59,022 bases of DNA. Source: Candidatus Udaeobacter sp. GTDB taxonomy: Bacteria; Eisenbacteria; RBG-16-71-46. The stretch lies in assembly GCA_035496475.1 (NCBI GenBank), contig DATJEP010000030.1:1-59022 (forward strand), in the 5' to 3' direction. The position numbers and the translations under genes were made by a program. A model generated the notes under the pieces. It was given only the letters and a program-made list of their open reading frames with translations, was not told where the DNA came from and ran no database searches. Positions 39,492 through 57,662 of this stretch are shown here, one piece after another; positions within the stretch are counted from its first letter, which is position 1; each line of letters starts with the position of its first letter.

Positions 39492-39510
39492 TTCCGCCCC
39501 GCGCTCCGCC

Positions 39511-41083: not shown

Positions 41084-42424
<1,341 letters not shown>

Positions 42425-42542: not shown

Positions 42543-42557
42543 TGGTATGGAGCTTGC
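42543..42557 (+). promoter_or_regulatory. Sigma-54-type promoter TGGTAT-N5-TTGC upstream of the Omp85-DUF4390 genes
   Basis: The plus strand reads gcTGGTATggagcTTGCgt. The -12 element lies 45 nt upstream of the GTG at 42602, which has a GAGGAGG SD. Confidence 0.45.
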
Positions 42558-42601
42558 GTTGCGGCCATGAGATGCTCCCGGCTCCTGTTCGAGGAGGTCC
42601 C

Positions 42602-43918
42602 GTGACGCCGCCTTCCCCTCTGCGCACGCTGATGATCGCAGCCGCACTGGTCCTCGCCCCCGGGCTCGCTCGGGCGGCCGATCCGCCCCCCGAGCCGGCC
42701 GCCCGCGACACCACCGAGCACCTCCAGTTCACCCCGAACCCGCTCGAATCGGAAGCGCCGCCCGAGCGCCCGCGTTCTCCGATCGGCGACCGCGAAGGCT
42801 CGTGGGCCAGGGCCCCGCGCGGCGACGACATCATCACCGACATCGAGCCCTGGCACGCCGCTGAAGGACACCATCAGGACCTCGATCTCCTGGTCGACTA
42901 CAACCGCGTCGATCCGCTCCGTGCCGGATTCGGCTGGCGATTCCATGGGACGGATGCGTGGATGCCGCGCGTCGGCGCGCGGGTCGAGCGTGCGTTCGGC
43001 CGGAATCGCACGCTGTACGGCGCGCAATTCGAGCAGCCGATCATCGGGCGCCGGAGGCTTTCGATCGGCGCCACGATGTACCGGAGAACCGATCACAACG
43101 ATCTCCAGCAGATGAGCGACTTCGAGAACAGCCTGGCGCTGCTGCTCGGTCGCACCGACGATCGCGATTACTTCGAGCGCGAAGGCCAGGGCGTCTACCT
43201 CGCGCTCCGGGTTCCGCGCGTCACCCGCGCCAGTCTGCGCTTCAACAGCGACCGCTACCGGTCGCTGTCGACCTGGACCGACACGCGCTCGTGGGCGCAC
43301 ACTGGGCGACCGTTGCGCGTGAATCCCGCCATCGACGACGGCGACGTGCACGCGCTCCAGCTCCGATTCGAGCGCGCGCCGCGCATGCCGCGCCGGCTCC
43401 GCGTCGGTCTCGATCACTGGATCGAGATCGAGCGCGCGGGTCATGGCATGGGCGGAGACTTCAGCTACACGCGGGCACTGGCCGACGTCCGCAGCATGCT
43501 GCGGCTCACCCCCGCCTCGACCCTGTCCCTTCGCGCCGTCGGCGGCCACAATCCCGACGGCGATCTGCCCCGCCAGAGGGAATTCACCGTTGGAGGGCCT
43601 GACGGCCTGCGCGCCCACCCGGTCGACGCCTTCCGCGGCAATCGCATCGCGCTCGGTCAGGCGGAATACGACGTCGGACTCTGGAGTATGCGGGGTGACG
43701 GTTTCGAGAACGGGATCCATGCGCTGGCATTCGTCGACGCGGGAGGAGCGTGGCATGGAACGCGCGGGAGCTGGGATCCGATTAGTCAGCGCTTCGCCGC
43801 CGACGGCGGCGTCGGGGTCGCGACCTCGGACACTTCGTTGCGGGTCTACTTCGCGAAGGACCTTCATGACGCCGGCCGCGACGTGGTGATCTCGGTGAGA
43901 CTTCAGCGTCCGTTCTGA
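42602..43918 (+). CDS. Omp85/BamA-TamA-family outer-membrane beta-barrel protein
   Basis: GAGGAGG lies 4 nt before the GTG at 42602. Signal peptide ...LMIAAALVLAPGLARA. C-terminal bacterial-surface-antigen pattern (FTVGGPDGLR...AFVDAGGAW...LRVYFAKDL...RPF). Confidence 0.75.
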   Translation: MTPPSPLRTLMIAAALVLAPGLARAADPPPEPAARDTTEHLQFTPNPLESEAPPERPRSPIGDREGSWARAPRGDDIITDIEPWHAAEGHHQDLDLLVDYNRVDPLRAGFGWRFHGTDAWMPRVGARVERAFGRNRTLYGAQFEQPIIGRRRLSIGATMYRRTDHNDLQQMSDFENSLALLLGRTDDRDYFEREGQGVYLALRVPRVTRASLRFNSDRYRSLSTWTDTRSWAHTGRPLRVNPAIDDGDVHALQLRFERAPRMPRRLRVGLDHWIEIERAGHGMGGDFSYTRALADVRSMLRLTPASTLSLRAVGGHNPDGDLPRQREFTVGGPDGLRAHPVDAFRGNRIALGQAEYDVGLWSMRGDGFENGIHALAFVDAGGAWHGTRGSWDPISQRFAADGGVGVATSDTSLRVYFAKDLHDAGRDVVISVRLQRPF

Positions 43919-43924
43919 CCCATC

Positions 43925-44611
43925 GTGCTCCCTTCGCTCCCCCATCCATCGCGGGCACGAGGCGTTGCGGGCGTGGCGCTCGTCACGCTCGCGTGGCTCG
44001 CGCTGCCGGCCATCGCCCATGCGCTCGACGTCGACGTGAGCGCCCCGCGCGCGCGCAGCGGTTATCTGTGGGTCGACGCGCGGCTGTCCGATCTCTTTCC
44101 GGCCCCGGTCGAGAGCAGCCTGTCGCGCGGGATGCCGGCCACGCTTCTGCTTCACGCCGAGCTGTGGCGGAAGCGCTCGATCTGGTTCGACCGCGTCGAG
44201 CACACCTTCGACGCCTCGGTGCGCGTTCGATACGAGGTATGGAACGACGTCTACCGGATCGAGCGAACGGGGGCGCCACCGCGCACACTCGGATCGCTGG
44301 ATTCCGTGCGCACGCTGCTCGAGCGGCCGATCGCGCTGCCGGTATGCGGTCTCGACGGGGTCGAGGAGGGCGTCCGCTACTACGTCGTGGTCTCCGCCAC
44401 GCTCGTCCCGCTCAGCGTCGAGGATGTCCAGGAAGTCGAGGGCTGGCTGTCGGGAGAAGTCGAGAGCAAGCGCCACTCGGGCTTCGGCGTGTTCACTGAA
44501 TTGCCGCAGGCGCTCTACGACACGGTGCGCAATTTCGCCGGCTTTGGCGATCGCCACGCCCGCGCGCAATCACGGGTCTTCGATGGGAGTGACCTCGGCG
44601 TCGGACGGTGA
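43925..44611 (+). CDS. DUF4390 domain-containing protein
   Basis: The segment LWVDARLSDLFPAPVESSLSRGMPATLLLHAELWRKR...VRYEVWNDVY... matches the pattern I associate with DUF4390, a family usually found beside ntrY-type kinases. Confidence 0.6.
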   Translation: MLPSLPHPSRARGVAGVALVTLAWLALPAIAHALDVDVSAPRARSGYLWVDARLSDLFPAPVESSLSRGMPATLLLHAELWRKRSIWFDRVEHTFDASVRVRYEVWNDVYRIERTGAPPRTLGSLDSVRTLLERPIALPVCGLDGVEEGVRYYVVVSATLVPLSVEDVQEVEGWLSGEVESKRHSGFGVFTELPQALYDTVRNFAGFGDRHARAQSRVFDGSDLGVGR

Positions 44612-44665: not shown

Positions 44666-45700
44666 CTAGTTCGGCGGCGTGAAGACGAACGGCGCCTGGA
44701 ACGACGTCATCCCCGCCTTGATCGGGGGGAAGCGCCAGTCGCGGATCTGGGACAGCACGCAGCTCGAGAGCCGCTCGGAGCGGATCGAGCTGTGCACGAT
44801 GTCGGCCTGGGTCACTTCACCGGACGGCGCGACCACGATCGCGACCACGATCTTTCCGGCCAGCGAAGGATCGCGTTTCAGCTCGGCGCTGTAGCAGTAC
44901 TGAATGCCGGCGGCGTAACGCTGGATCACGGCGAGCAGCGACGCGTTGGTGCGATACACGCCGGGCGCCGCGCCCGGCGCGATCGCGTCGTCGCTCGACG
45001 CCGCGGAGGGCGCGGTCCCGGCCGACAGGCCTCCGATCGCGAGCATCGGCGCCTCCACCGAACCGTGCAGGTCGGCCGAGCCGCCGCCGTTCGGAAGACT
45101 GGCGTCGACCGAGCCGAGCTGACCCTCGGAGCGCCCGCCGCGCACGCCGCGCTCGCGCGCGCTGCGGGTCGGCTGATAGGAGCCGGTGTCCTTGAGCAGC
45201 GCCGCGACGTCGCCGAGCGTGCGATCGATGCTGGCGGTCGCACTGGCGAGCCGTGCGGTCGCCTGCTGGGCCCGCGCGCGCCCCGCGCGCGACGCGTCGT
45301 TGTCGATCTCGGAAGGCTGGACCGCGCGGCGCACGCGCTCGGGCGCCTCGGGCGGCGGCGCCGGCATCGCCGCATCGGCCATCTCGTTGACCTTGAGCGG
45401 CAGGTGAATCGGCGGGCTGACCTCTCGCGCCGGCGGAGGCGTCTCGGGCTTGATCTGAGCCATCAGCTTCACGGCGCGCTCCGGCAGCTCCACCACCGTG
45501 ACCTCGCGCTTCCAGAGCGGCGACAGCACGAACGCGATGACGAACAGCAGGCACATCAGTGCCGACGCGATCACCATGCTCATCGAGAGACGGCGTGGAA
45601 TCGCGCGCAGGAATCCGCGGCGTTCCTCGATCAAATGGAGGAACGACCATTTCAGTCGCTTCTGAACCGCCGCCGCGCTCGGACTGGTCGAGAGGATCAT
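44666..45700 (-). CDS. Single-pass, Pro-rich TonB-like protein with an AgmX/PglI-type C-terminal domain (GltG/NfsG-like)
   Basis: TM helix MVIASALMCLLFVIAFVL, a Pro-rich linker, and the C-terminus IQYCYSAELKRDPSLAGKIVV...SSCVLSQIRDWRFPP...APFVF. The ATG overlaps the upstream stop codon (ATGA). Confidence 0.7.
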   Translation of the reverse strand: MILSTSPSAAAVQKRLKWSFLHLIEERRGFLRAIPRRLSMSMVIASALMCLLFVIAFVLSPLWKREVTVVELPERAVKLMAQIKPETPPPAREVSPPIHLPLKVNEMADAAMPAPPPEAPERVRRAVQPSEIDNDASRAGRARAQQATARLASATASIDRTLGDVAALLKDTGSYQPTRSARERGVRGGRSEGQLGSVDASLPNGGGSADLHGSVEAPMLAIGGLSAGTAPSAASSDDAIAPGAAPGVYRTNASLLAVIQRYAAGIQYCYSAELKRDPSLAGKIVVAIVVAPSGEVTQADIVHSSIRSERLSSCVLSQIRDWRFPPIKAGMTSFQAPFVFTPPN

Positions 45701-46158
45701 GGCTGGCTCGGGCCACCGGAGGTCGACGGCGATTCAGCGGCGTCCGCTCGCGGAACGGGCGCGCCTCCGCTCTGAATCCGCGCCGGCAGGCCGGTGGCCT
45801 TGCCGAGCTCGGCGGCGGAGCGGAGGTAGCGGCGGTGCTGGAGATCGATGAAGCGGCGCTGATCCGATGCGGTCACGAACAGGACCTGCGGAACCGGGAT
45901 CTCGCCTTCGATGTGAATGTCGGTCAGCCGTCGCTGGGTGGAATCCGCCGCGGGCGGCTTGATGCCGCTGGCAGACGTTCCCGCCCGGGATCGCGGACTG
46001 CGTCGCGCCTTCGAGGCCGGCGCCTTCGACACCGCCGACTTCGAGGCGTGCGCGGGGGCGGCTGCGCGATCCGCGCCCGGCGCCGCGGGATCGGCCTGCG
46101 CCGCCGCGACGGTGAGGGTCAGGGCGACGAGGCCCGCGAACACGATGCGGCGCCTCAT
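45697..46158 (-). CDS. Small secreted protein (GltF/NfsF position), no recognised family
   Basis: The ATG at 46158 overlaps the upstream stop codon (ATGA). Signal peptide MRRRIVFAGLVALTLTVAAAQA. Conserved-looking core DIHIEGEIPVPQVLFVTASDQRRF. Confidence 0.55.
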   Translation of the reverse strand: MRRRIVFAGLVALTLTVAAAQADPAAPGADRAAAPAHASKSAVSKAPASKARRSPRSRAGTSASGIKPPAADSTQRRLTDIHIEGEIPVPQVLFVTASDQRRFIDLQHRRYLRSAAELGKATGLPARIQSGGAPVPRADAAESPSTSGGPSQP

Positions 46159-47051
46159 CGCTCGCCATCCTTTCCCACCAGCTTGCTCGATCCGATGCGC
46201 TCGAATACGGCCTCGAGGCTGTCGGGGTCGGCGTGCGAGCGCTCGCGATAGGCGCGGAACCATTTGAGTGCGGCGTCGTCGTCGAAGACGAAGAACTCGT
46301 CGAGGATCGCCAGGTTGTAGTAGGGCCCGGCCAGCTTCGAATCGAGATCGATCGCCTTGAGGAACGAGCGCCGCGCCCCCTCGACGTCGCCGGCCCGAAG
46401 CTGCGCGATGCCGTAGTTGTTGTGATTCGCGGCACTGTGACCGTCCTCGTTAACGGCGTCGGCGGCGAGCGAGGCGGCCGAATCCGGGTGGGTTCCGCGC
46501 AGCGTCAGGTAAACACGCGCCGACGTCAGGCTCTTCGACTCGCCGCGGACGTCCGCCAGGGTCGCGCGCGCGCGCGCCAGGTCATCGACCGCGTCGTACT
46601 CGATCGCGAGATCGGCGGCGAGCTCCGGCGGAGCCTCGCCGGGGAGCTCGCCCGATCCGCCGCGCGCGGTTTCGAGCAGGCGGATCGCCTGTTCATGGCG
46701 ACCCGACTCGAAATAGATCTTCGACAGCAGCGAGAGCGCCGGCGCGTAATGGGCATCCCGATGGAGCGACTCACGCAGCGCGCTCTCCGCCTGCCCGATC
46801 GAATCCGCGTCGACGTAGAGCTCAGCCAGCTGGAACGGCCAGTAGGGCTCGGCCGGCGCGCTCGCGCACTTCTCGCGCGCGGTCGCCTCCCTGGAAGCCG
46901 TGGTCTCGGGCACGATTCCGACCCTGGACGCGACCAGGTTGGCCCGATGCGCCACGCTTCGGACCGCGCAGCCGCTCGAACCCACCGCCATCACGGCGAG
47001 GATCACGATCACCGCGAGTCGTCGTTGCCGGTGCGGAGGCGTGAAGGTCAT
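46155..47051 (-). CDS. TPR-repeat (lipo)protein (GltE/NfsE-like)
   Basis: N-terminus RRLAVIVILAVMAVGSSGCA (possible lipobox), followed by TPR repeats. The ATG overlaps the stop codon of the giant TPR gene (ATGA). Confidence 0.7.
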   Translation of the reverse strand: MTFTPPHRQRRLAVIVILAVMAVGSSGCAVRSVAHRANLVASRVGIVPETTASREATAREKCASAPAEPYWPFQLAELYVDADSIGQAESALRESLHRDAHYAPALSLLSKIYFESGRHEQAIRLLETARGGSGELPGEAPPELAADLAIEYDAVDDLARARATLADVRGESKSLTSARVYLTLRGTHPDSAASLAADAVNEDGHSAANHNNYGIAQLRAGDVEGARRSFLKAIDLDSKLAGPYYNLAILDEFFVFDDDAALKWFRAYRERSHADPDSLEAVFERIGSSKLVGKDGER

Positions 47052-50000
47052 CGCCGGCTGTCCTTTCGGTGCGGTCGCGAATCATCCGGAGCGGCGTGGT
47101 TGGACGCGTTCGCCGGATCGTCGGCCGAGTCGTCCGCCACTTTGGCGGGCGGCGAGGCCGGCGCCAGCGGGAACTCCAGCTCGGGCCGGTAGGTGAAGCG
47201 GTTCGACAGTCGCTTCCACAGCGACACCTGAGTGCGCGCGATCCACTCGTCGTCGGAGTGGTCCTTCGCACGCTGACGCAGCACGTCACTCCAGATCTTC
47301 TCGGCGCGATCGCCGAACGCCCGGCTCCGGTCGCTGAGGACGTTGTCGTAGGCACGGCGCGCGTCTCCCTGAAGATCGGCAGGCCGCTCGCTCTCCTCCA
47401 GCGCCTTGCCGAAGGCGATCACGGCCTCGCCCATGCGGCATGCCGAGGCGTGCGCCCAGCGCGTGACGCCGAAGTTCATGCTTTCGCGGTAGAGCCCGAG
47501 CACGCGATCGAGCCGCTGCTGGCGGAGCGCGATCGACTTCGCCAGCGGCTGACGGAGGCGCGTGGCGTCGTAGACGGGGTAGGCCTCCTCGGCCTCGAGG
47601 AAGCGGACCTGAGCCAGGACCGGGTGCGACTCGAGGTCTGGGTGAGCCGAGGCAAGCCTCAGGTACTCGGCCAGACGCGACGGCGAGGGCGACGGAACCG
47701 CGGCCGCGGATCGTCGCGACTTCGAGCGCGACGGCACCGGCACGGCTGGCAGCAGCGTCGAGATCGGATGTTGCGCCGTGACCGAGGCGAGATCGCGAAC
47801 GGCCAGCGGCTCCAGGATCTCCATCGCGGTCGCGAAATCGCCGGGATAGCGGTGGAGGTATTCGAGGCGCAGCGTTTCGGCGCGATCGCCGGCGTGCGAG
47901 GATTCGAACAGGTCGGCGGCGCGCAGCAGCGCGTTGCGCGCGGTCGAGTCGGCCGGGAAGTGCGCGGCGAAGTCGGCGTAGGCCTCGGCGCTCTTCGCCG
48001 AGTCGCCGCTCGCCTCATAGGTCTTCGCGATCTCGAGGTGGGCGTCGCGCACGTATTCGCACTGCGGGAACTTCTGAATCAACGATTGCATCGCACGCAC
48101 CGAGCGGTCGTACTTGCCGGCGCGCCGGTAGTCGAGCCCCGCCAGATACTGCGCCCGCGCCGCGTAGCGATAGCCCGGCCAGTTCGTGGCGACGGTTTCG
48201 TAGAGCTCGGCGTGCTTGAGATAGGCGGTGGAGTCCGCGGCCACCGCGGCTTCCGCTTCGCGGTAGGCGCAGACCGGAATCGCTTCGGCGGCGCGGCGGG
48301 CGACCGAATCGACTCCGGCGGCGCGCGCGGTGGTCAGCGCCTGCTCGTACGCGCCGCGGGCGTCGGCGTAGCGACCGAGGCCGAACCAGGCGTCGGCGCG
48401 CAACACCGCCGCGCGCGATGCGCGGCGATCGCCTGGCGCGCGCGTGAGCATGAGGCCGAAGTGATTCGCGGCGTCCTCGAGCCAGCCGTGCGCGAAGGCG
48501 AGGTTGCCGGCCCTCCAGGTCAGGTCGGCCGAGGCGGGGTGTGAGGGGGCGCGGTCGAGCAGCTCGTCGGCGCTCCGGATGACGAGATGCGCGAGCGAGT
48601 CGCTGCCGAGCGACGTGTTGGCGATCGCCCGCGCCGCGCCCGTGCCGCGTGGCGCGGCGGCGCGCGGGTGTCCCGGCGGGCGGGTGCTCTCGTACCAGGC
48701 GTCGGCGACCGCGACCCTCTGCCACATCGCGCTGACCGAGACGCTGTCCCGCCCGTCTCCGGCCGCGGCCGTGTAGTGATGCATCGCGGTGGCGTATTCG
48801 CCGAGCCGAGTGCTGGCCTCCCCGGCCTCCATCTCGACCCGCTGGGTCGAGGGATCGTCCGGCCACTTCGCCAGCAGCTGCCCGTAGAGATCGAGGGCGG
48901 CGCGCCAGTCGTCGCGCGAGCCGCTCTCGCGCGCCTTCAGGTGATGCTCGAGCGCCACCGCCTCGATCGAAGAGCGCGCGAACTCGGAGCCCGCCGCGCG
49001 CACGGAATCCGAACGCTGCGCCCGGGCCCAGTCGCTGCCGGGCGAGAATCGCGGCGCGAAGTTGAGCCGGGCGTCGCGGGCGCCGGCGGGCCGGTTCCAG
49101 CGCTGATAGGTTTCGACCAGTCGCTCGGCGCTGATCAGCGCGTCGGACTCGAGCGGATAGCGGGTAAGCGCGAGCTCGTCGACCGCGATCGCCTCAGGGT
49201 ACTTGCCGTAGCGGCGGAATTCCTGACCCATCGAGAGCAGCACACGACGCTCGTAATCGCGCGATCCAATGCGATCGAAGTACCCCGCCAGCGCCTCGGC
49301 GCCGCCGGCTTCGGCGAGCGAGTGCACGAGATAGGTCTCGGCCTCGCGCCGGACGTCGACGCCCATCGCATGGCCGGTATCGGAGGCATAGAGATCGAGG
49401 ACGCTCCGGAACGCGTCGGCGGCGGCGAGGAACTGGTCGCGATTGAATTCCGCCCAGCCCATCTTGTAGAACGCGACCGTGCGCAAGTCGGCGTTCGAGC
49501 CCTGGGTGGCACGCCGATAGAGCGGAACGCACTCGGCATAGCGCCGGTCGGCGAACGCCATGTCGCCCATGCGGACGTAGGACTCCTGGACGTAGCGCGA
49601 CGCCGGGTACTGCCCGGTGAGCTCGGCGAAGAGCTTCGCCGCCTCGGGGCTCCCCTGTTCGGCGAGGATCATGCCGGCGTTGAAGAGCACCGCGTCGCGG
49701 TGCGCGAAGTCGCGGTCCTCGGCGAGGATCTTCCGATAGAGCGCGAGCGCGTCGTCGTGACCCAGCACCGGCAGCGGCCCGGCCGCGCCGCCTTCGGAGC
49801 GCGCCTTGAGGTAGGCGGCCATGCGCTCTTCGAACTTCTGGCGACCGTCGACGATGAGGAGATCGGCCAGCCGGAATCGCATCTCACCGCGCGCGAAGGA
49901 GCGCGGGTGGCGCGCGAGGAACGAGCCCAGCCGATCGATCGCCTCCTGCCGCCAGCGCGCCGTCTCGGGATCACTCGCGTCTGCGCCCTGAGCCGCCGAG

Positions 50001-52192
50001 CGCACCGAATCCGCCGGTTCGGATCGCGACGAATCGTCCGGAGCCTGCGGATTCGCGACGTGAAGAGCCATGAGCGTGTCACCCGGCACGAGGTGAACGC
50101 TCGCGCCGTAGGCGGAAACCGCGAGACCGTAGTCGATGCCTTCGCGCTCTCCCGCGAGCGCGGCCAGCGTGCGGGAGACCGCGGCGCGCGCGACGCGCCG
50201 GGCGAGCTGCCGGTATGCCTCGCGCCGGGCCTCGGTCTCGCGCGTCAGGCGCTCGATCCTGGCTGCGAGCAGGCGCAGCGTGTCGCTGGTGGCCGCCGCG
50301 GCGAAGCTCGAATCGATCGCGGTATGGAGCGCGCGCGCCCACATGAGCTGGTTCTCGACCTCGGCCCAGTCCGAGGAGACGCGGTCGATCAGACCCGGGC
50401 GCCACGCGTTCTCGTCGGAGCGATCGATCAGACCCGGGGCCTGCGCGGCGAGCGCGGAGGCCGACGCCATGATCGCGCGCGCGAGCGCGGTCTCGGTGGC
50501 GACCACCTCGTCCGGCAACGGGTATCCCTGAGGCGCCGGAGTGGATCGCTCCCGGTTCGGCCCGTCGAGATGGAAACGCTTCATGGCCTCGAGCCAGAGA
50601 AGGTGGTCGGTGCAGCGCTCGAGGATCGCGGCGGTGCGCTCGGCGACGCGGCGCTTCGACTCGTCGTGAACCGACTGGATCAGCGCGCGCAGGCTGGCGA
50701 GTGATTTCTGCAGCGAGTCGAGCAGAGCCGATTCGGACTCGAGGATCCCCTCCTCGTGGCGCGTGCGGGTGAGCCCGCCCTCGAGATAGCGGCGCAGACC
50801 GTCCAGCTGCTCGCGCTCGCGCTGCCACGCCCACCGCGCTCGAATCAGATCGCTCGCCGATTCGCGCGCCGACCGGCCGGCGTGCGCGACGACGTCACGC
50901 TCGGAATCGGATGGCGCGATCACCGCCCACCGGGAGAACGCTGCCACGGGTGAGGTGAGCAATGGCACGGGCCCGTCCGGACGCCGGCCGAGGTCGAGCG
51001 ACGAGGTGACGAGCTGCATGGCCGAGGCGAACGACGACCCGCCGTCGAGCAGGAGCGCGTCGTCGTCCGGAGTGGTGGTCCAACGAACCCACAGCGAATC
51101 GAGCGCGTCGTCCGCGGTCAGCCGCTCGAGCGCGTCCTGGTGCCGCGACCAGTCATCGTCCACCCTGCGGTAGAGATTCCACGCGCCGTTCCAGTCACCA
51201 TGGTCGAGGGCGAGCCCGGCGAGCGAGCGCTCGACCTCGCGCCATGAGGCGTAGGTCGTGTCCGTGCCGGACACCGACTCGAGAACGAGACGCGCGCCGG
51301 CGGAATCGCCGTGCTCGAAGTCGGCCATGCCGAGCATGTGCATTGCGCGGGCCCGATAACGGCTTCCGGTCGGAACCGACTCCAGCAGCGCACGCGGATC
51401 GCGGCCGCGAGTCAGCTCGCGCGTCGCGCGCGCGATCAGCGCGGCGGCGGCGAGGTCACGCCCGAGCGCGGTGGTGGTATCGCGACTCGAAAGCGCCTCG
51501 AGCATCGGGCCGTCGTCGAGGCCGAGCGCGCGGCGGGCGCGGGCGGCGATCTCGAGCGAGAACGGCGTGGTTCCGCCCCGCACATCGATCGCGCGGATCA
51601 GCGCGAGCGCCGCGTCGGGATGACCGGCGCGGAGCCGCAACGCGGCCTCGAGCGCATCGGTCGCGTCGTCTCCCGAGCTCGCGCTGTCGGCCGCGCCGGG
51701 CTGCTCGCCGATCTCGCCCGATCGAAGCTGGAATGCCAGCCAGCGCGTGTACAGGCTCTGATGTCGCCAGGTCGACACGGAATGCGCCAGCGCCTCGAAG
51801 CTCTCACGGCTGCCCATCTCGAGATACATCTGTCCGAGCAGGAACGCGGCGCGGTCGCCTTCCGGGAACGAAGGCTCGGACGAGAAATCGATCGCCTCGA
51901 GATTCTCGACCGCCTCGGACAGGTTGCCGCGGGCGATCTCGAGCGTGGCGCGCCCGAGCCTCAGTTGATTGGCATCGCTCGAGCCGGGAGTGGTGGTCGC
52001 GAGCGGAATGGAATTAGGGTCCGCCGGCCGCGCCGCCGCGGGCCGGGGCGACGCCGCCGGCTGTACCGCGGGATGCGCGGGCGCCGCGGTCCGGGCGAAC
52101 GCCCGACCGGGATTCGTCACCAGAACGACGGACGCCGCGATGGCACTGAGGGCGAGGAGCGCGGCGTTCCGGACGGCGACGTGCCGATTCAC
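47048..52192 (-). CDS. Giant (1714 aa) TPR-repeat envelope protein (GltD/AgmU/NfsD-like)
   Basis: GAGGAG lies 7 nt before the GTG at 52192. An N-terminal signal/anchor (AALLALSAIAASVVLV) is followed by TPR/BamD-YbgF-like repeats throughout. Confidence 0.75.
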   Translation of the reverse strand: MNRHVAVRNAALLALSAIAASVVLVTNPGRAFARTAAPAHPAVQPAASPRPAAARPADPNSIPLATTTPGSSDANQLRLGRATLEIARGNLSEAVENLEAIDFSSEPSFPEGDRAAFLLGQMYLEMGSRESFEALAHSVSTWRHQSLYTRWLAFQLRSGEIGEQPGAADSASSGDDATDALEAALRLRAGHPDAALALIRAIDVRGGTTPFSLEIAARARRALGLDDGPMLEALSSRDTTTALGRDLAAAALIARATRELTRGRDPRALLESVPTGSRYRARAMHMLGMADFEHGDSAGARLVLESVSGTDTTYASWREVERSLAGLALDHGDWNGAWNLYRRVDDDWSRHQDALERLTADDALDSLWVRWTTTPDDDALLLDGGSSFASAMQLVTSSLDLGRRPDGPVPLLTSPVAAFSRWAVIAPSDSERDVVAHAGRSARESASDLIRARWAWQREREQLDGLRRYLEGGLTRTRHEEGILESESALLDSLQKSLASLRALIQSVHDESKRRVAERTAAILERCTDHLLWLEAMKRFHLDGPNRERSTPAPQGYPLPDEVVATETALARAIMASASALAAQAPGLIDRSDENAWRPGLIDRVSSDWAEVENQLMWARALHTAIDSSFAAAATSDTLRLLAARIERLTRETEARREAYRQLARRVARAAVSRTLAALAGEREGIDYGLAVSAYGASVHLVPGDTLMALHVANPQAPDDSSRSEPADSVRSAAQGADASDPETARWRQEAIDRLGSFLARHPRSFARGEMRFRLADLLIVDGRQKFEERMAAYLKARSEGGAAGPLPVLGHDDALALYRKILAEDRDFAHRDAVLFNAGMILAEQGSPEAAKLFAELTGQYPASRYVQESYVRMGDMAFADRRYAECVPLYRRATQGSNADLRTVAFYKMGWAEFNRDQFLAAADAFRSVLDLYASDTGHAMGVDVRREAETYLVHSLAEAGGAEALAGYFDRIGSRDYERRVLLSMGQEFRRYGKYPEAIAVDELALTRYPLESDALISAERLVETYQRWNRPAGARDARLNFAPRFSPGSDWARAQRSDSVRAAGSEFARSSIEAVALEHHLKARESGSRDDWRAALDLYGQLLAKWPDDPSTQRVEMEAGEASTRLGEYATAMHHYTAAAGDGRDSVSVSAMWQRVAVADAWYESTRPPGHPRAAAPRGTGAARAIANTSLGSDSLAHLVIRSADELLDRAPSHPASADLTWRAGNLAFAHGWLEDAANHFGLMLTRAPGDRRASRAAVLRADAWFGLGRYADARGAYEQALTTARAAGVDSVARRAAEAIPVCAYREAEAAVAADSTAYLKHAELYETVATNWPGYRYAARAQYLAGLDYRRAGKYDRSVRAMQSLIQKFPQCEYVRDAHLEIAKTYEASGDSAKSAEAYADFAAHFPADSTARNALLRAADLFESSHAGDRAETLRLEYLHRYPGDFATAMEILEPLAVRDLASVTAQHPISTLLPAVPVPSRSKSRRSAAAVPSPSPSRLAEYLRLASAHPDLESHPVLAQVRFLEAEEAYPVYDATRLRQPLAKSIALRQQRLDRVLGLYRESMNFGVTRWAHASACRMGEAVIAFGKALEESERPADLQGDARRAYDNVLSDRSRAFGDRAEKIWSDVLRQRAKDHSDDEWIARTQVSLWKRLSNRFTYRPELEFPLAPASPPAKVADDSADDPANASNHAAPDDSRPHRKDSRR

Positions 52193-52203
52193 GGTGCCGC
52201 TCC

Positions 52204-53016
52204 TCAGCTATCCCCCGCACCCTGCTTCGCGTCGTTGAGCCAGGTGGTCGCACGCAGGCTCGCGGCGCCGCGCGCGGGATTCGCGGACGAGAGATCGAAG
52301 CGCAGGAAGCTGAAGCGGTCGCGCGGCGGGTCGAGCGTGACGAAGCCGGCGTCGCCGGGACTCCAGCCCCCGCCCGACATCGCGACCTGGATCACCTGCG
52401 CCCGCGGCTCGACGAATCCGTGGAAGATCTGCACCACGCCGCCCTGCTTCAGCGCCTGCTGCTGCTCGGCGGAGAGCGTGTCCGACACGGTGGTGCCGTC
52501 ATCGAGGGTGATCGCGACGGTTCTCGGCGCCTCGCCTTGCGGGCTTCCGCTCAGCACCACGACCAGCGCGGTGCGCTGGCGCCCGGTGAAGTCGGCCTGC
52601 AGCCGCGCCAGCCGGTTGCGCTGGCCGTCGAGCTGCCGGTCGAGCAGATCGAGCTGGTTCTCGAGCCGTCCGAGATCGGTGATGCTGCGCAGGAGATCGA
52701 GCTTCTTCCGCGCGTCCTCGGCGAGCGCCACCGAATCACGCGCGCCCATGATCTCCGCCAGCATGCTCTGGTATCCGAGGAAGCGCGGATCGATCGCCGC
52801 CGCCTCGCCGCGCTTCTGCAGCGCGACCTGCTTCAGGAGATCGAATCGCGCGCGGATGAAGTCGCGATTGTCCTTCAGGAATCGAAGCGTCTCGATCTTC
52901 TCCTTCGGCGGGCGTTCACGCTCGACCCGGACCTCGGTGACGGCGCCCTGGCCGAAGGCGCATGCCGGCAGCGCGAGGCCGACGAGGAGCGCTGCGGTAA
53001 CCATCGCGCGTCCCAT
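52204..53016 (-). CDS. Secreted coiled-coil protein with a C-terminal beta-rich domain, unknown family
   Basis: The ATG at 53016 lies 2 nt after the upstream stop codon. Signal peptide MGRAMVTAALLVGLALPACAFGQG. Heptad-like segment LDLLRSITDLGRLENQLDLLDRQLDGQRNRLARLQ. Confidence 0.6.
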   Translation of the reverse strand: MGRAMVTAALLVGLALPACAFGQGAVTEVRVERERPPKEKIETLRFLKDNRDFIRARFDLLKQVALQKRGEAAAIDPRFLGYQSMLAEIMGARDSVALAEDARKKLDLLRSITDLGRLENQLDLLDRQLDGQRNRLARLQADFTGRQRTALVVVLSGSPQGEAPRTVAITLDDGTTVSDTLSAEQQQALKQGGVVQIFHGFVEPRAQVIQVAMSGGGWSPGDAGFVTLDPPRDRFSFLRFDLSSANPARGAASLRATTWLNDAKQGAGDS

Positions 53017-53018
53017 GA

Positions 53019-53627
53019 TCAGCCCCTCCAGGTGCGGCGCACCTTGCCGTCGGTGGCGCTCACCACCACGAACAGCGAGGGCGCGCGGTCGGAGGAATAA
53101 ACGATGGTCCACGTCGTCTCGTCGGGATCGCCTTCGAGGAAGGGGCCGCGCATCAGCAGCATGGTCTGGAGCTTTCCACCCTGTTCCCTTCGAAACGCCA
53201 GGCCGGCGGCACGGTCGGCCGCTTCGAGCGCGGCTCCGCTGTTGATCCACTGGGTGGCCGTGGGCGGCGCCTCGAACTTCATCCCGAGGTTCTCGGCCAC
53301 CAGGATCCTGCCGTCGCGCACCGAATAGCCTCGCGCCTTCATCAGCGAAGGCGAGTAGAAGAGATAGCCCCAGCGCGTGGCGGCTCCGCCCGGACCGACG
53401 TCCTCGTCGTTCTCGACGTAGACCAGGAACGCGTCCGGCGCCCAGGCCCACGCCGCGGCGGCGCAGATCTCGACACCGGCACGCGCCTCGAATGGCGTGT
53501 AGTCGCGCGCCTCGACCGGCGCGGCGAACGCGAGCAGACCGAGCGACAGCATCGCGAGGAACGCGGCGCCTCGTCCGGCGAGAGCGTTCGAGCGGCCGGC
53601 GACCCTGATTCGTCCCTGAGGCTTCAT
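53019..53627 (-). CDS. Secreted protein, unknown family
   Basis: AGGAG lies 8 nt before the ATG at 53627. The signal peptide ends ...LLAFAAPVEA. Confidence 0.55.
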   Translation of the reverse strand: MKPQGRIRVAGRSNALAGRGAAFLAMLSLGLLAFAAPVEARDYTPFEARAGVEICAAAAWAWAPDAFLVYVENDEDVGPGGAATRWGYLFYSPSLMKARGYSVRDGRILVAENLGMKFEAPPTATQWINSGAALEAADRAAGLAFRREQGGKLQTMLLMRGPFLEGDPDETTWTIVYSSDRAPSLFVVVSATDGKVRRTWRG

Positions 53628-53637
53628 GGGAACGCTC

Positions 53638-54606
53638 CTAGAAGAGGTACGAAGAGCCGAAGCTGAATTCGATGTTGTGATTGGTGACGCGCGCGTCGGG
53701 AGGACCGGTCTTGAAGCGGAAATCACGCACTTCCCACCGCACCGCGGTCCGCTTCGAGATGAACAGCGCGGTGCCGCCGCCGAAGTTGAAGCCGGGCTCG
53801 GTCTCGCCCTGCATCATCGAGGCGCCGATGCCGCCGCTCACGAACGGCACCATCTGCCGGCCCGGCAGCAGCTCCCAGACGCCGCCGAGGTAGTACGACA
53901 GCATGTGAAAGCTCTCCTCCTCGAGCGAGAGATCGAACAGCGACTCGACGATCTCGGCCGGGCGGCGCACGTGCGTCCAGGCGAGGCCGGCCTCGGCCTG
54001 CAGGCGATCGAACACGTAGTAGCCGAGTCTGCCGCCGAGAACGAGCGAGTTGGACTTGCGATCGAACGCGTAGGCGCCCCCGTAGCCGCCGATCACGAAG
54101 CTGCCGGTGCGCGAATAGAGACGAGGATTGGGCTTGAACTCGAGATCGGACAGGTCGTCGTATTCCTTGCACAGCGCGGAATGGATCCAGCCGGTCTCGG
54201 AATCGCTGAGGCGAACGTTGTACCAGGGACCGCTCTTGGCGATCACGGTGAACGTGGCCCCGCGCGGGTAGACCCCGGCGATGGCGAACGAATCGCCGGG
54301 ACCTAAGCGCACGACGTTGCGGTCCGAGTGCGTGAGCCGGACCTTGCGCGTCGTGTTGATGTGCGCATTCGGCGAGGCGGGAAAGGCCGCCGGATGGGGC
54401 GCGGTGACCGACGCCGCGGTCGGGACGCTGTCGGCGGGCGCCGTGGCGGCGCTGTCGATCGACGCGGTCACGGCGAGGCTGTCGACGGCACTCGCGGCGC
54501 CCGCCTCGCGCGGGAGCGCGGCGGCGAACGAGCCGGCCGCGATCAACAGCGCGAGGGTCGAGCGGCGCCCGGCTCCCACGATGGGATGAGGATCCCTGCG
54601 CTTCAT
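53638..54606 (-). CDS. SH3-domain plus outer-membrane beta-barrel protein
   Basis: Signal peptide, then a bacterial SH3-like segment (VRLGPGDSFAIAGVYPRGATFTVIAKSGPWYNVRLSDSETGWIH). This is followed by alternating-hydrophobic barrel strands ending ...GSSYLF. Confidence 0.65.
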   Translation of the reverse strand: MKRRDPHPIVGAGRRSTLALLIAAGSFAAALPREAGAASAVDSLAVTASIDSAATAPADSVPTAASVTAPHPAAFPASPNAHINTTRKVRLTHSDRNVVRLGPGDSFAIAGVYPRGATFTVIAKSGPWYNVRLSDSETGWIHSALCKEYDDLSDLEFKPNPRLYSRTGSFVIGGYGGAYAFDRKSNSLVLGGRLGYYVFDRLQAEAGLAWTHVRRPAEIVESLFDLSLEEESFHMLSYYLGGVWELLPGRQMVPFVSGGIGASMMQGETEPGFNFGGGTALFISKRTAVRWEVRDFRFKTGPPDARVTNHNIEFSFGSSYLF

Positions 54607-54619
54607 CGTGACATCCCTT

Positions 54620-55339
54620 TCAAGGCCGCGCGAAGATTCGCGCCAGCTCGAAGCGTGCGCTCCAGTCTCCGAACGACGTGCGTCCCTGCTCGATCGCGCC
54701 GCCCTGCCGGTGCGCGGTATCGAGCGCGAACATTTCCTGCTCGACGTCCACTCCCATTCGCCACGCGCCGCCGAGCGGCCGCCTCAGCGCCACGCCTCCG
54801 CCCACCGCCCATGCGTTGATCGGATCGAACGACACCTCGGTCGAGCCCGATCCCGACGGAATCGAGACCCGGTCCGGGTCGTAGCCGAGATGCAGGAGCC
54901 CGGTGCTGACCGTCGCCAGCGACTGGACCTGATGCCATTCCCACACCCGCGCGCGGGTCACGACCTCGAAGCTCGTGGCCTGCACGCGGGTCTGGTCGAT
55001 CGCCCCCGGAACGCCGATCGCTTGCGACGTCCCGGTGCGCACGAACCGGATCCCGGCCTCGAGCCGGCCAAAGCCGGCCATCGCCTCGCCGCCGAAGCCG
55101 GCCCGCGGCGTCACGCTCCACTGGTAATCGGCCAGTTTCGAATTCCATTGAGTCGAACCGCCGAGGGCACCGACCAAGAACCACCGGCGCGGCGTTTCGG
55201 ACGCGGCGGAGAAGGGGCCGGCCTCGCTCCGGGCCGGAGCGGCGGCCACGGCGGCCACCAGCAGCGCGGCTCCGAGGGTCGCGTGCGCGGGGCGGGCCCA
55301 CGCGCGCCCGGTCGCGAACGAAGCGAGCCCGGGGCGCAT
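54620..55339 (-). CDS. Small outer-membrane beta-barrel protein
   Basis: Signal peptide ...ALLVAAVAAAPARSEA, followed by amphipathic beta-strand periodicity. The start lies 2 nt after the upstream stop codon. Confidence 0.55.
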   Translation of the reverse strand: MRPGLASFATGRAWARPAHATLGAALLVAAVAAAPARSEAGPFSAASETPRRWFLVGALGGSTQWNSKLADYQWSVTPRAGFGGEAMAGFGRLEAGIRFVRTGTSQAIGVPGAIDQTRVQATSFEVVTRARVWEWHQVQSLATVSTGLLHLGYDPDRVSIPSGSGSTEVSFDPINAWAVGGGVALRRPLGGAWRMGVDVEQEMFALDTAHRQGGAIEQGRTSFGDWSARFELARIFARP

Positions 55340-55341
55340 GA

Positions 55342-56022
55342 TCAGAACGGCCTCGGCGCGACCGACAGGTTCATGCCGATCGAGAGGTACTCGTAGTCGG
55401 TCGACCGGTAGGGCGTGATCAGGATCGAATCCATCCCGTTCGCGAGCTCGATCTTGTCGCCGTGGGCGAGATAGCAGACCAGGAAGAGCCCGCGGATCGC
55501 CGCGCCGGAGGAGTCGGTGGCGGGCGCCACGCCCGCGAACGAAAGATTGATGCCCTGGATCAGGTGATCCCAGCCGGTCACGGCGCGTATCCCGCGCCCG
55601 ACGCAGGTCGAATTCTGCAGCAGATGATCGATGTCCTCCGCCATCCGCTGGCGAGGCGCGTCGAGCCCGATCGCGACGTCGGATGGCCCGATGGTGCTGC
55701 TCGCGCGCAGATCGCAGACGAGGTAGCCGGTGATGATCGACCGGTAGGTGATCTGGGTCCCGACCTGGATCGACTCGCGGACCCCCGGCGTGATCGCCTG
55801 GTTCTCGGACAGGTTCGAGCTCCGAACGTCGATCCGCGTCCAGCGGTCCTCGATCTTCGGCTTGCCGAGGCAGCCGCCGAGGACGAGTGCGGCAACGCTG
55901 AGAACGAGCGCCGCCACGCCGCCGGCGAAACGCGGATGCGCCGGTCTCGTCCGGGTGGACGGGGCACCGCCCGGTCGCGCCGCCGCTTCGGCGGTCGCGG
56001 CTCTCCGCGTCCGCTCGATCAA
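55342..56022 (-). CDS. Lipoprotein, unknown family
   Basis: Lipobox ALVLSVAALVLGGC. The start is uncertain: a TTG at 56022 overlaps the upstream TGA (TTGA), and an alternative GTG is at 55917. The track ORF start at 56127 would overlap the upstream gene by 108 nt. Confidence 0.55.
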   Translation of the reverse strand: MIERTRRAATAEAAARPGGAPSTRTRPAHPRFAGGVAALVLSVAALVLGGCLGKPKIEDRWTRIDVRSSNLSENQAITPGVRESIQVGTQITYRSIITGYLVCDLRASSTIGPSDVAIGLDAPRQRMAEDIDHLLQNSTCVGRGIRAVTGWDHLIQGINLSFAGVAPATDSSGAAIRGLFLVCYLAHGDKIELANGMDSILITPYRSTDYEYLSIGMNLSVAPRPF

Positions 56023-57662
56023 CGGATCAGCACCATGCGGCGGGTGAAGCTCTCGCGGCCGACGTCGAGCCGGTAGAGATACACGCCGGCACGCGCGCGG
56101 CGGCCCCATTCGTCGCTGCCGTCCCACACCACTTCGTTGAGGCCGGGCGTGAACGAGCCGGAGAACGTCCGGACCCGCCGTCCCATCGCGTCATACACGC
56201 TGAGCGACACGCGCTCGCCGGAGGCCGGCAGGAGGAACGCGATGCGCGTAAACGAGGCAACCGGATTCGGAATGTTGCCGAGCAGCATGGTCCGGGCCGG
56301 TGCCGCCGCGCCGGCGCCGCTGGTCGAGAACTCGGTCTGCGCCACGTCCGACGGGCCATTCGCGTAGCTCGACACCGCCGAAACGCGGAGGATCAGCGCA
56401 TCCGCACCCCCGGCGCCGGCGACATCCTGGTCCTTGAGCGGCAACGTATGGACGCCGGCATCCATCACGCCGGCGCTGCGGCGGGCCAGCCAGCGCCCGG
56501 TCGAGACGTCGAGCACTTCGATCGAGACGGTGGCGCGGTCCGAGAGCGTGAAGAACGCGGCGGGTCCGTTCTCGGTGCCGACGGTCAGCTTCGAGATCTC
56601 GAGGCCGAGATTCCAGCGGCGGATGCCGCTGGCTTCGGACCAGTTCTCGACCGACACCGCGACCGGCTGTCCGATCCGCGACACCGTTCCAGCGCGATGG
56701 TCGCGCACGTTCGCGAACGGCACGCGGAAGCTGTGCGGGCTCGAGAGTCCGTCGCGGATCTCGGCCACCGGGGTGAGGTCGGGCGCGAACTTCCGCACCA
56801 GCGCCTGGCGCGGCGCGCTGGCGTAGAGGTTGCCCCACTGATCGGTGTCGAGCGAGGTCAGGAGATCGGCGTCGAGCCGCGCGTCGGAGACCCAGCTCAG
56901 CGCGCCGGACTGATTGCGAAGGTGAACGATGCGATGGTTGTGCGCGTCGGCGACGTAGATCTCGGCGTTGTTGGCGCCTTCGGTCCGTCCCGCCGCGATC
57001 GCGAGAGGGCCGGCAAATCGGCCGGTGCCGCCGCCGAGGTCGCCGATCGTCGAGATCAGGCGCGCCCGCGCCGACTCCAGCGCATAGGACGCGATGCGGT
57101 TGCGTCCGGTGTCGGCGACATAGAGATAATCGTCCCCGTCGTGGAACGGCGTTCCGCCGTCCGAGTAGGCGACGTCATAGGGTCCCGAGAGCCCCGCGAT
57201 CTCGAAGATCGGCACCAGCTCGACGTCGCCGAATTCGGTCGAGGCCTGGAGCACGAGGATGCGGTTGTTGCCGGCGTCGGCGACGTAGACGCGATTGTTC
57301 TCGTCCACCGCCATGCCGCGCGGATTCGAGAGCGGGCCAAAGACCGTCCCCTGGCCGTCGAAGGCGCGCAGCGTGCGCCCGGACTCGCCATAGACCAGCC
57401 GGTTCCAGCGCGGGTCCGAGACCACCAGGAACTGCCGCGACTCAACGTAGGGGAAGCGGTCGTAGAGATCGACGTTCGAGATCGTGACGGTGGACCAGGG
57501 ATTCGCGAACAGGTCTCGACCGAGCTGGTCCCGCGTGAGCTTGCGCGTGAAGGAGTCGATGCCGAGCTCCGGCGCGATCGGCGACGTGCTGAAGGTGGCC
57601 GCAGGGACAGGCCGCGCCGCCGCCAGCGTCAGACCGAGGGCCAGTAGGATGAGTCGTCGCAC
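56019..57662 (-). CDS. NHL-repeat beta-propeller protein with a T9SS-type (FlgD-Ig-like) C-terminal sorting domain
   Basis: GGAGAGGAG precedes the GTG at 57662. Signal peptide MRRLILLALGLTLAAA. NHL motifs YVADAGNNRILVL, YVADTGRNRIASY and YVADAHNHRIVHL. CTD ...IPNPVASFTRIAFLLP...LSVYDAMGRRV...GVYLYRL...MVLIR. Confidence 0.8.
   Translation of the reverse strand: MRRLILLALGLTLAAARPVPAATFSTSPIAPELGIDSFTRKLTRDQLGRDLFANPWSTVTISNVDLYDRFPYVESRQFLVVSDPRWNRLVYGESGRTLRAFDGQGTVFGPLSNPRGMAVDENNRVYVADAGNNRILVLQASTEFGDVELVPIFEIAGLSGPYDVAYSDGGTPFHDGDDYLYVADTGRNRIASYALESARARLISTIGDLGGGTGRFAGPLAIAAGRTEGANNAEIYVADAHNHRIVHLRNQSGALSWVSDARLDADLLTSLDTDQWGNLYASAPRQALVRKFAPDLTPVAEIRDGLSSPHSFRVPFANVRDHRAGTVSRIGQPVAVSVENWSEASGIRRWNLGLEISKLTVGTENGPAAFFTLSDRATVSIEVLDVSTGRWLARRSAGVMDAGVHTLPLKDQDVAGAGGADALILRVSAVSSYANGPSDVAQTEFSTSGAGAAAPARTMLLGNIPNPVASFTRIAFLLPASGERVSLSVYDAMGRRVRTFSGSFTPGLNEVVWDGSDEWGRRARAGVYLYRLDVGRESFTRRMVLIR

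Follow-up and report, generated by a model that had tools for sequence, protein, structure and literature searches.

We analysed a 59,022-nucleotide (nt) stretch of DNA (assembly GCA_035496475.1, contig DATJEP010000030.1, positions 1 to 59,022 of the forward strand; the window) and, within it, a block of nine minus-strand genes, G1 to G9, at 44666-56022. Judging from the sequences of its products, the block is likely to encode the Eisenbacteria form of a trans-envelope, force-transducing complex of the Agl-Glt/Nfs class. From G1 onward it encodes a lipoprotein, two outer-membrane (OM) barrels, two secreted proteins, a giant protein with tetratricopeptide repeats (TPR), a TPR lipoprotein, a small secreted protein and a single-pass inner-membrane TonB-like transducer. 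G+C content is ~70% across the whole window, and the nine open reading frames (ORFs) have the high third-position G+C expected of it. An independent JGI gene call of the same contig gives products of 226, 239, 322, 202, 266, 1714, 298, 153 and 344 amino acids (aa). The preliminary description of this DNA had placed ten same-strand, tightly packed genes in this interval. The strand and the packing are as described, but the interval holds nine genes, and the tenth is the upstream gene G0, which lies outside it.

Start and stop codons overlap by 4 nt at G0/G1 (TTGA, 56019-56022) and at G6/G7, G7/G8 and G8/G9 (ATGA). The remaining gaps within G1-G9 are 2, 13, 10 and 11 nt, together with 14 nt at G4/G5, which shrinks to 2 nt if G5 starts at an upstream ATG. 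The spacing described earlier, ATGA/TTGA overlaps or gaps of at most 13 nt, is therefore found at every junction except G4/G5. Terminator-like sites inside the cluster show no excess over shuffled sequence (5 observed, 4.7 expected). Based on the overlaps, the short gaps and the lack of a terminator excess, we predict that the nine genes are co-transcribed.

Products of the nine genes

Relatives of the cluster come from a scan with the G9 alignment as query that covered a single genome for each GTDB species and gave 64 loci. Family hidden Markov models (HMMs) were mapped onto all loci with resolution of overlapping ORFs, shadow-frame ORFs being typical of DNA with 70% G+C. As comparators for G1-G9 we used NCBIfam models (GltG, GltJ, GltE, GltC) and paralogous Myxococcota clusters, not the Myxococcus xanthus proteins themselves. 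One such cluster, L071, is an outlier locus of the genome scan, from a metagenome-assembled genome (MAG) named 'Proteobacteria bacterium'. It is a myxobacterial-type Glt paralogue cluster that encodes a GltG-like protein with an FHA domain (117 bits to GltG, 106 bits to AgmX/PglI), two OMP_myx_plus barrels, a GltC-like protein (75 bits) and, in the GltD position, a TPR protein of ~1100-1277 aa, whose family has members in cultured bacteria (Myxococcus stipitatus, M. landrumensis and Vulgatibacter). The other, L072 (Myxococcus stipitatus, CP102770), likewise encodes a GltG-like protein (217 bits, FHA), barrels, a GltC-like protein (90 bits), a giant and a TPR protein. The barrels of the two clusters score 69-120 bits against OMP_myx_plus, and on these profile scores we regard both clusters as genuine Glt paralogues. 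The GltG-like gene of L071 (L071:8115-10309) is present as two overlapping ORFs, one with the FHA part (8115-9113) and one with the transmembrane (TM) and AgmX/PglI part (8780-10309), which reflects either a frameshift or an assembly error.

In G9 (44666-45700, minus strand, 344 aa), a cytoplasmic tail of ~40 aa and a TM helix are followed by a Pro-rich linker and then by the AgmX/PglI C-terminal domain. The C-terminal motif quoted in the preliminary description is present, and the domain assignment proposed there is borne out at 88.1 bits against NF033768, the AgmX/PglI C-terminal model (cutoff 40). The C-terminus also matches the GltG model NF033760 at 70 bits (equivalog cutoff 650), and residues 41-340, from the TM helix to the C-terminus, match the GltJ model NF033761 at 54 bits (equivalog cutoff 450). 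Because neither equivalog cutoff is reached, G9 is a relative within this family and not an orthologue of GltG or GltJ. Two general models of the TonB C-terminus are passed as well, TIGR01352 (32.6 bits, cutoff 27.1) and Pfam TonB_C (28.1 bits, cutoff 24.6). A G9 HMM built without L071 recovers the GltG-like protein of L071 at 107 bits, from the TM helix to the C-terminus. Within the G9 family alignment the C-terminal domain is almost invariant, and the TM segment has a conserved small-residue motif and a proline (Pro61) that are kept alike in relatives with and without motor genes (see below). FHA, ZnR and GYF domains were not found on G9 with NCBIfam, Pfam or the family alignment. Strong homologues number more than 200 in metagenomes, and a tblastn search of a plasmid collection gave no match.

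G6 (47048-52192, minus strand, 1714 aa) is the predicted periplasmic TPR giant. The G6 family aligns by hhalign with the family found in the GltD position in Myxococcota (probability 100, E 2.9e-45, 845 columns), such that residues ~750-1640 of G6 correspond to residues 54-~910 of the M. stipitatus giant. BLASTP between G6 and the L071 giant gives 74 bits (E 7e-17) over a non-repeat stretch, and a G6 HMM built without L071 matches that giant at 71 bits as one collinear domain of ~835 positions. The HMM matches all 120 members of the Myxococcota GltD-position family examined (120/120), with 69-107 bits on members from cultured Myxococcus and Vulgatibacter; a TPR-rich neighbour used as a control, E754, is not matched. 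Together, the hhalign, HMM and BLASTP matches place the C-terminal ~900 residues of G6 in the GltD-position family. We conclude from these comparisons, which were with Myxococcota paralogues, that residues ~750-1640 are a predicted GltD-family scaffold.

In NCBIfam, G6 has matches to YbgF/BamD-type TPR models alone. The YbgF/CpoB-type TPR segment scores 82.9 bits (cutoff 90.1), and that of the orthologue in L001, a relative from the genome scan, scores 91.7 bits against the same cutoff. A GltD model was not matched in NCBIfam, even by the GltD-position proteins of L071 and L072; the collection evidently holds models for GltC, GltE, GltG, GltJ, CglF and Tgl. Residues 1-~720 of G6 are a lineage-specific extension, conserved within Eisenbacteria, with a long predicted helical or coiled-coil stretch at about residues 440-720. 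Nothing in the Myxococcota GltD-position proteins corresponds to this extension, and it is not similar to G5 or G7. The idea that it is a fused GltC finds no support, with an hhalign probability of <=1% against two GltC paralogues (two sequences only).

G1, G2 and G3 make up the predicted OM module. The G1 family (55342-56022, minus strand, 226 aa) has a conserved lipobox, LGGC followed by LGKPxIEDRWTR. G1 is 52% identical to its orthologue in L003, has no match in Pfam or NCBIfam, and occupies the position of GltK in Myxococcus. G2 (54620-55339, minus strand, 239 aa) likewise has no sequence-family match in Pfam or NCBIfam. The AlphaFold2 (AF2) model from a 21-sequence alignment is all beta, with a mean predicted local distance difference test score (pLDDT) of 82.8 overall and values >90 over residues 50-239. 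A Foldseek search of the PDB places the OmpA TM domain, OmpW, NspA and OpcA on top (E 1e-7 to 1e-5), so that, by fold only, G2 is predicted to be a small OmpA/OmpW/OmpX-type barrel. G3 (53638-54606, minus strand, 322 aa) matches TIGR04565 OMP_myx_plus (63.9 bits, cutoff 60), SH3_3 (33.6 bits, cutoff 27) and OMP_b-brl (27.9 bits), and is predicted to join a periplasmic SH3 domain to an OM barrel. Against the L071 barrel it reaches an hhalign probability of 18%; the two share the OMP_myx_plus model, from which no orthology to GltA or GltB follows. G2 and G3 show no profile similarity to each other, and we dropped the idea that they are paralogous barrels.

G7 (46155-47051, minus strand, 298 aa), in the GltE position, belongs to TPR families and has a lipobox cysteine in most, though not all, of the family members shown. 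The preliminary description had listed a lipoprotein at the start of the cluster, a 239-aa OM barrel, an SH3+OM barrel and a TPR lipoprotein, and each of these assignments holds: the lipoproteins by the lipoboxes of G1 and G7, G2 by its predicted structure despite the lack of a family match, and G3 by two domain scores above cutoff. Against the GltE model NF033758, G7 scores 21 bits (cutoff 225), below its own PilW and PrsT scores. It aligns with the TPR proteins of L071 and L072 at an hhalign probability of 95-97%, over generic TPR repeats. Profile similarity to GltD/NfsD, GltE/NfsE and GltG/NfsG had been expected for the 1714-, 298- and 344-aa proteins. The 344- and 1714-aa proteins do match GltG- and GltD-type families, but the GltE match of the 298-aa protein is non-specific. 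G8 (45697-46158, minus strand, 153 aa), in the GltF position, has a signal peptide, an Ala/Pro/Ser-rich low-complexity middle and a C-terminal segment that is conserved in its family; it has no Pfam or NCBIfam match.

The two secreted proteins between the barrels and the giant, which the preliminary description had listed as of unknown family, are not homologues of GltC/NfsC: neither has profile similarity to the GltC paralogues of L071 and L072, and no window protein matches the GltC model NF033756 at E<=0.1, with the proteins of L071 and L072 matching it at the scores given above. G4 (53019-53627, minus strand, 202 aa) has a signal peptide in all family members. Pfam PepSY is weakly matched by 8 of 22 family members (best E 5e-5), and we regard G4 as probably PepSY-like; the window copy itself has no PepSY match, and the G4 profile matches no PDB sequence. 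G5 (52204-53004, minus strand, 266 aa) has no Pfam or NCBIfam family, including in Pfam scans of each member, and its profile finds coiled-coil peptides alone in the PDB, in a noise-like manner. Single-sequence AF2 gives a low-confidence model (pLDDT 52) with a long helix at residues 91-141 and strands after it, which suggests a secreted protein whose N-terminal half is helical or coiled-coil and whose C-terminal half is beta-rich.

Conservation, host and motor genes

Conservation of the gene order, on which the preliminary description had left its proposal to depend, is clear. Wherever the contig is long enough, all of the 64 genome loci and 80 metagenome loci show one and the same order of G1-G9, which is thus kept in ~140 related loci. 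Genes outside the G1-G9 block differ from locus to locus. The window proteins are 43-74% identical to their orthologues, and 43-58% identical to those of other loci that lack motor genes. The recurrence of the same order in all related loci examined puts the arrangement far beyond chance.

The same loci bear on the identity of the host. The NCBI third-party annotation (TPA) MAG record labels the window's own protein 'Candidatus Udaeobacter sp.' (Verrucomicrobiota). The 64 genome loci carry 32 Eisenbacteria/Eiseniibacteriota labels, 23 are unlabelled and 9 have scattered labels. Among these nine, five labels come from TPA records (four of SMAG isolates) and contradict one another: Limnocylindria, Saccharimonadaceae, Verrucomicrobiia and Methylomirabilota. 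Because the relatives are overwhelmingly Candidatus Eisenbacteria, and because the TPA labels are inconsistent, the Udaeobacter label is doubtful; it is probably wrong, and the host is probably a member of Candidatus Eisenbacteria.

Most relatives carry a motor inside the cluster. Between G8 and G9, L001, L005, L073, L074 and 42 of the 52 classifiable genome loci have one MotA_ExbB gene and two ExbD genes, which encode one TolQ-like and two different TolR-like proteins; this is the AglR/AglQ/AglS arrangement. A metagenome scan with the second TolR-like family as query found 249 relatives, of which the best 80 were kept. Among these best 80 of 249, all that have enough flank are embedded as G8-Q-R-R-G9. 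The motor proteins score weakly against the TolQ, TolR, ExbB and ExbD equivalogs, and best against the TolQ and TolR models. The two TolR-like paralogues (L001:9003-9987, L005 and L020-L069) differ at the position of the membrane Asp of TolR/ExbD: the first has Asn in 38 of 41 sequences, and the second keeps Asp in 40 of 40. This points to only one protonatable residue in the stator axle. According to a review, the conserved Asp is predicted in AglQ as well as in AglS (PMC9389320).

The window has no such genes. Pfam on all plausible ORFs and tblastn with the motor proteins of relatives found no MotA/ExbB or ExbD/TolR gene in the 59 kb, in agreement with the earlier observation that a TolQ/TolR-type motor is absent here. 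The motor-less minority consists of 10 genome loci, the window and a few metagenome contigs (with the window, L003/L004/L009, L006-L008, L010-L015, L017 and L019). Because an independent Logan contig of the same sequence has the motor-less junction too, and at least 10 MAGs show it, it is not an assembly artefact. In crude neighbour-joining trees of G9 and G6, which are poorly resolved, motor-less loci are nested among motor-bearing ones and the deep branches are all motor-bearing. Thus, the embedded motor is probably the ancestral state, with its loss having occurred perhaps on more than one occasion, and we take its absence from the window, on counts and trees, to be a derived minority state. 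The suggestion that the cluster is a divergent or minimal version needs amending, in that the family as a whole is not minimal: most relatives carry the motor in the operon.

Three MAGs contain two loci of the family: L015 and L068 in JBKJXJ01, L047 and L060 in CAZADU01, and L026 and L062 in JANNKI01. In the first of these (swi_bin.170), the motor-less L015 is accompanied by L068, a second G9-like gene whose C-terminal domain resembles the motor-bearing type; the L068 contig is too short to show the neighbours of this gene.

Upstream neighbours and other genes of the window

The preliminary description had ended the cluster at 56022. Three genes on the same strand continue upstream of it to the edge of the window: G0 (56019-57662), which encodes a secreted 547-aa NHL-repeat protein; a gene for a 379-aa DUF3570 protein (57694-58833; Pfam 134.8 bits); and a DUF4266 lipoprotein gene (58827-59021; Pfam 54.2 bits, cutoff 27). 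The 5' part of the DUF4266 gene is cut off by the edge, and so the cluster runs off the window. The DUF4266 stop overlaps the DUF3570 start by 10 nt, and the gap between DUF3570 and G0 is 31 nt. The order DUF4266-DUF3570-NHL-G1 recurs in L073 and L074. These two loci have a conserved gene set upstream of the operon (L073:433-7182 and L074:391-7047), of which the window, ending at 59022, shows the last three (G0 and the two genes in 57694-59022, minus strand), so that the set is seen with both cluster types. The set begins with a small protein, an OMP_b-brl barrel (~210 aa) and a PD40/Tricorn_N/HZS_alpha beta-propeller (~660 aa), and continues with a thioredoxin/AhpC-TSA protein, DUF4266, DUF3570 and the NHL/FlgD_ig protein.

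G0 has NHL (51 bits) and FlgD_ig (34.8 bits) domains and a Por_Secre_tail, TIGR04183 (29.6 bits, cutoff 23), the type A sorting signal of the type IX secretion system (T9SS). In the window and in L003/L004, L007, L073 and L074, which include both cluster types, G0 is the gene immediately upstream of G1; its product is a candidate surface cargo or adhesin of the system. The G0-family HMM also picks up a 1264-aa ORF elsewhere in the window (6301-10095, plus strand), which has good coding statistics and no Pfam family at E<=1e-3; this match is probably through a shared C-terminal sorting-type domain.

Four plus-strand genes (39478-44611) converge on the 3' end of the operon, with a gap of 54 nt. 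They encode a HAMP histidine kinase, a sigma-54-dependent response regulator, a weakly Omp85-like protein and a DUF4390 protein, and may be an envelope-related regulatory unit; they are not kept beside the cluster in other loci. A 1031-aa protein with TPR, GAF, sigma-54 AAA+ activator and HTH_8 domains (33061-36156, minus strand) is a large one-component enhancer-binding protein, and a second sigma-54 activator lies 5 kb from its gene.

Interpretation and relation to known systems

We favor the view, which we hold to be probable, that the block belongs to the Agl-Glt/Nfs class. The claim that its gene order mirrors nfsA-G and gltD-E-F-G is supported by the homology of G9 and G6, the OMP_myx_plus match of G3, the fold of G2 and the synteny among relatives. 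By analogy with models for Tol, Ton and Agl-Glt (PMC11761067, PMC9389320), a stator of the 5:2 type that runs on the proton motive force (PMF) would act on the TM helix of G9, whose Pro-rich linker and C-terminal domain would dock on a periplasmic scaffold of G6, G7 and G8. G4 and G5 could stand in for the GltC of Myxococcus as the connector from the scaffold to G1, G2 and G3, and the SH3 domain of G3 may touch peptidoglycan. The scaffold would then pull or move the OM platform of G1, G2 and G3, which would probably display the beta-propeller of G0 with its T9SS-type tail, loosely parallel to CglB. The ~40-residue tail of G9, the lack of FHA, ZnR and GYF domains and the lack of GltI and GltJ imply that there is no coupling to a cytoplasmic polarity or cytoskeleton platform. 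Because the motor genes are absent and the nine genes are intact and conserved, the complex in the window must borrow a motor encoded elsewhere, either from a second cluster that bears a motor or from an ExbBD or TolQR set of the generic kind. As its output in the cell, the complex could move an adhesin or polymer over the surface, drive gliding or remodel the envelope.

Several points weigh against this view. The window contains no motor gene, no stand-alone copy of the cluster-type motor was found among the best 80 of 249 metagenome loci, and a second locus is present in 1 of 10 motor-less genomes (L015 with L068). The match of G7 to GltE is non-specific, as far as the profiles tell. G1, G2, G4, G5 and G8 do not exceed an hhalign probability of 4% against any L071 or L072 protein, and they are assigned GltK-, GltB-, GltC- and GltF-like roles only from where they lie in the cluster and where they are predicted to be located. 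G0 is tied to the machine by synteny only. All members of the family come from uncultured organisms and are known as sequences.

A different reading would make the cluster a housekeeping system of the Tol-Pal/TonB type, with G9 as a common TonB/TolA paralogue and G6 as a CpoB/YbgF-like protein of unusual size, together serving OM integrity or uptake through the barrels. G9 does pass the TIGR01352 and Pfam TonB_C models, but it scores far higher on AgmX/PglI (88 bits). Similarly, G6 has the YbgF/CpoB-type TPR segment (82.9 bits in the window and 91.7 in L001, cutoff 90.1), but its alignment with the GltD-position family extends over 845 columns, beyond that segment. The motor proteins of relatives score best, if weakly, against TolQ and TolR models, and the conserved upstream region of L073 and L074 has a PD40 beta-propeller and a small OMP barrel, as such a system might. 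However, two different TolR paralogues per motor is the arrangement of AglRQS and not of Tol or Ton, and NCBIfam and Pfam reveal in the cluster neither TolB nor a Pal/OmpA-like lipoprotein of the kind that binds peptidoglycan, nor a TonB-dependent receptor. We consider this reading unlikely, and since Glt itself is regarded as a Tol-like derivative, it differs from ours mainly on the output.

It is also conceivable, though in our judgment quite improbable, that motor-less copies such as the window are decaying or static remnants, either passive envelope-spanning tethers or clusters heading for loss. The lack of any MotA/ExbB or ExbD/TolR gene in 59 kb, of an orphan cluster-type motor among the best 80 of 249 metagenome loci, and of a second locus in all but one motor-less genome would fit such a fate. 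But the nine ORFs are intact and 43-58% identical to those of other motor-less loci, with order and overlaps kept, and the TM segment and C-terminal domain of G9 are as conserved as in motor-bearing loci. Intact, conserved clusters without a motor argue for long-term purifying selection after motor loss. Several TonB-like proteins commonly share one ExbBD or TolQR set. Nfs provides a precedent: it runs on the AglRQS motor, encoded in trans (PMC3858216).

A more far-reaching version of our favored view is that the cluster is a phylum-wide, single-operon Agl-Glt-like machine with T9SS-sorted NHL cargo, and that the lineage of the window discarded the stator and re-wired the transducer to Tol or Exb. 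This is speculative and, as a whole, doubtful. If true, a surface-translocation or gliding apparatus would combine a myxobacterial-type transducer with a Bacteroidetes-type secreted adhesin, and the OM module of Glt would not be a late deltaproteobacterial invention.

To our knowledge, Agl-Glt is the only known bacterial focal-adhesion motor, and what is known of its force path through the periplasm comes from AlphaFold models alone. Its parts are spread over three loci in Myxococcus. In Eisenbacteria, motor, transducer, scaffold and OM platform would be encoded in one operon that is conserved across an uncultured phylum. This compact operon could serve as a natural minimal set for co-evolution analysis, prediction of complexes and heterologous reconstitution. 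The known range of the OM module would be extended beyond Myxococcota and Bdellovibrionota, and natural 'motor-deleted' variants such as the window might show how transducers choose a stator. Eisenbacteria are, as far as we know, a common soil phylum with no cultured member, and ours is one of few functional hypotheses for them, resting on sequence. In the literature collection searched, no paper was found that links Eisenbacteria with gliding or Glt.

Several features are common to the cluster and Agl-Glt (GltA-K and AglRQS of M. xanthus). Both have an AgmX/PglI TonB-like protein; a GltD-family giant followed by a TPR lipoprotein and then a small, largely low-complexity secreted protein; OMP_myx_plus-type barrels preceded by a lipoprotein; and a stator made of one TolQ-like and two TolR-like proteins, which most of the Eisenbacteria loci encode. 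The order lipoprotein-barrel-barrel-...-D-E-F-(motor)-G parallels gltK-B-A-C plus gltD-E-F-G. In contrast to Agl-Glt, the Eisenbacteria cluster has two unrelated secreted proteins in the place of GltC and no GltC homologue, and it has no equivalent of GltH, GltI or GltJ; Pfam on the ORFs finds no FHA-, ZnR- or GYF-domain protein and no GltI in the cluster or the window. GltG has a cytoplasmic FHA domain (PMC11761067), which G9 lacks. G6 has an N-terminal extension of ~720 aa, G3 has an SH3 domain, and G1, G2 and G8 have no detectable relation to the Myxococcota proteins of L071 and L072. In place of the beta-propeller and VWA adhesin CglB there is G0, with its NHL repeats and T9SS tail and without a VWA domain. 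All Eisenbacteria parts are in one operon, and the window copy lacks the motor.

Nfs (NfsA-H) is similar in being encoded at one locus, with barrels, then a giant TPR protein, a TPR lipoprotein, a small protein and a TonB-like protein. It also has no cytoplasmic platform components, and the motor-less type of the window would share with it the use of a motor encoded elsewhere. Nfs includes a protein of the NfsC/GltC type, and its proteins are closely paralogous to those of Glt. By contrast, the proteins of Eisenbacteria are far more divergent, and five have no counterpart; here the likeness to NfsA-H is drawn from descriptions. We know of no link to sporulation for the Eisenbacteria cluster and expect none.

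The preliminary description had also stressed that the cluster lies outside a myxobacterial context. In this it is not new, because core clusters of gltD/E/G/C and aglRQS have been described in Gamma- and Betaproteobacteria, Geobacter and Fibrobacter by Luciano et al. in 2011, with the barrels, GltF and GltK assigned to Myxococcales and Bdellovibrionales only (PMC3169522). Like those core clusters, the Eisenbacteria cluster is a single operon outside Myxococcota with GltD/E/G-type genes, a TolQ/TolR/TolR motor and an extra gene without a myxobacterial homologue. Unlike them, and again as compared by description, it has a lipoprotein and two barrels and no GltC, and one subgroup, which includes the window, has lost the motor genes. 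Fibrobacter, like Eisenbacteria, is in the FCB group.

The L071 and L072 clusters, for which sequences were compared, share with the window a giant homologous to G6 and, in their GltG-like proteins, the C-terminal domain of G9; in L071 the shared region extends from the TM helix to the C-terminus. Their barrels share the NCBIfam domain family of G3. These clusters differ in that they start with the GltG-like gene, have FHA and a GltC paralogue, have no embedded motor, and lack counterparts of G1, G2, G4, G5 and G8. Tol-Pal and Ton share the logic by which a PMF-driven 5:2 stator works on a single-pass protein whose periplasmic linker is long and whose C-terminal domain is of the TonB/TolA type, and Tol-Pal has CpoB/YbgF, to which a TPR segment of G6 is similar. 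The Eisenbacteria cluster differs from them by its giant scaffold, by a dedicated module of OM barrels and by having two TolR paralogues that are distinct from each other. NCBIfam and Pfam find no TolB, Pal or OmpA_C-like domain in the cluster proteins, Pfam finds no Plug or TonB_dep_Rec domain in the window ORFs, and the cluster barrels are small compared with a 22-strand TonB-dependent receptor.

In having no cytoplasmic coupling, the predicted machine is closer to Nfs and to the core complexes outside myxobacteria than to the gliding machine of the focal-adhesion type. We conclude that the Eisenbacteria cluster is a further, undescribed lineage of Glt-type clusters. It is set apart from the others by its OM module, the lack of GltC, an enlarged GltD-family protein and a minimal GltG-like protein, and also by five lineage-specific parts, a conserved neighbour with NHL repeats and a T9SS tail, and the natural occurrence of motor-less variants.

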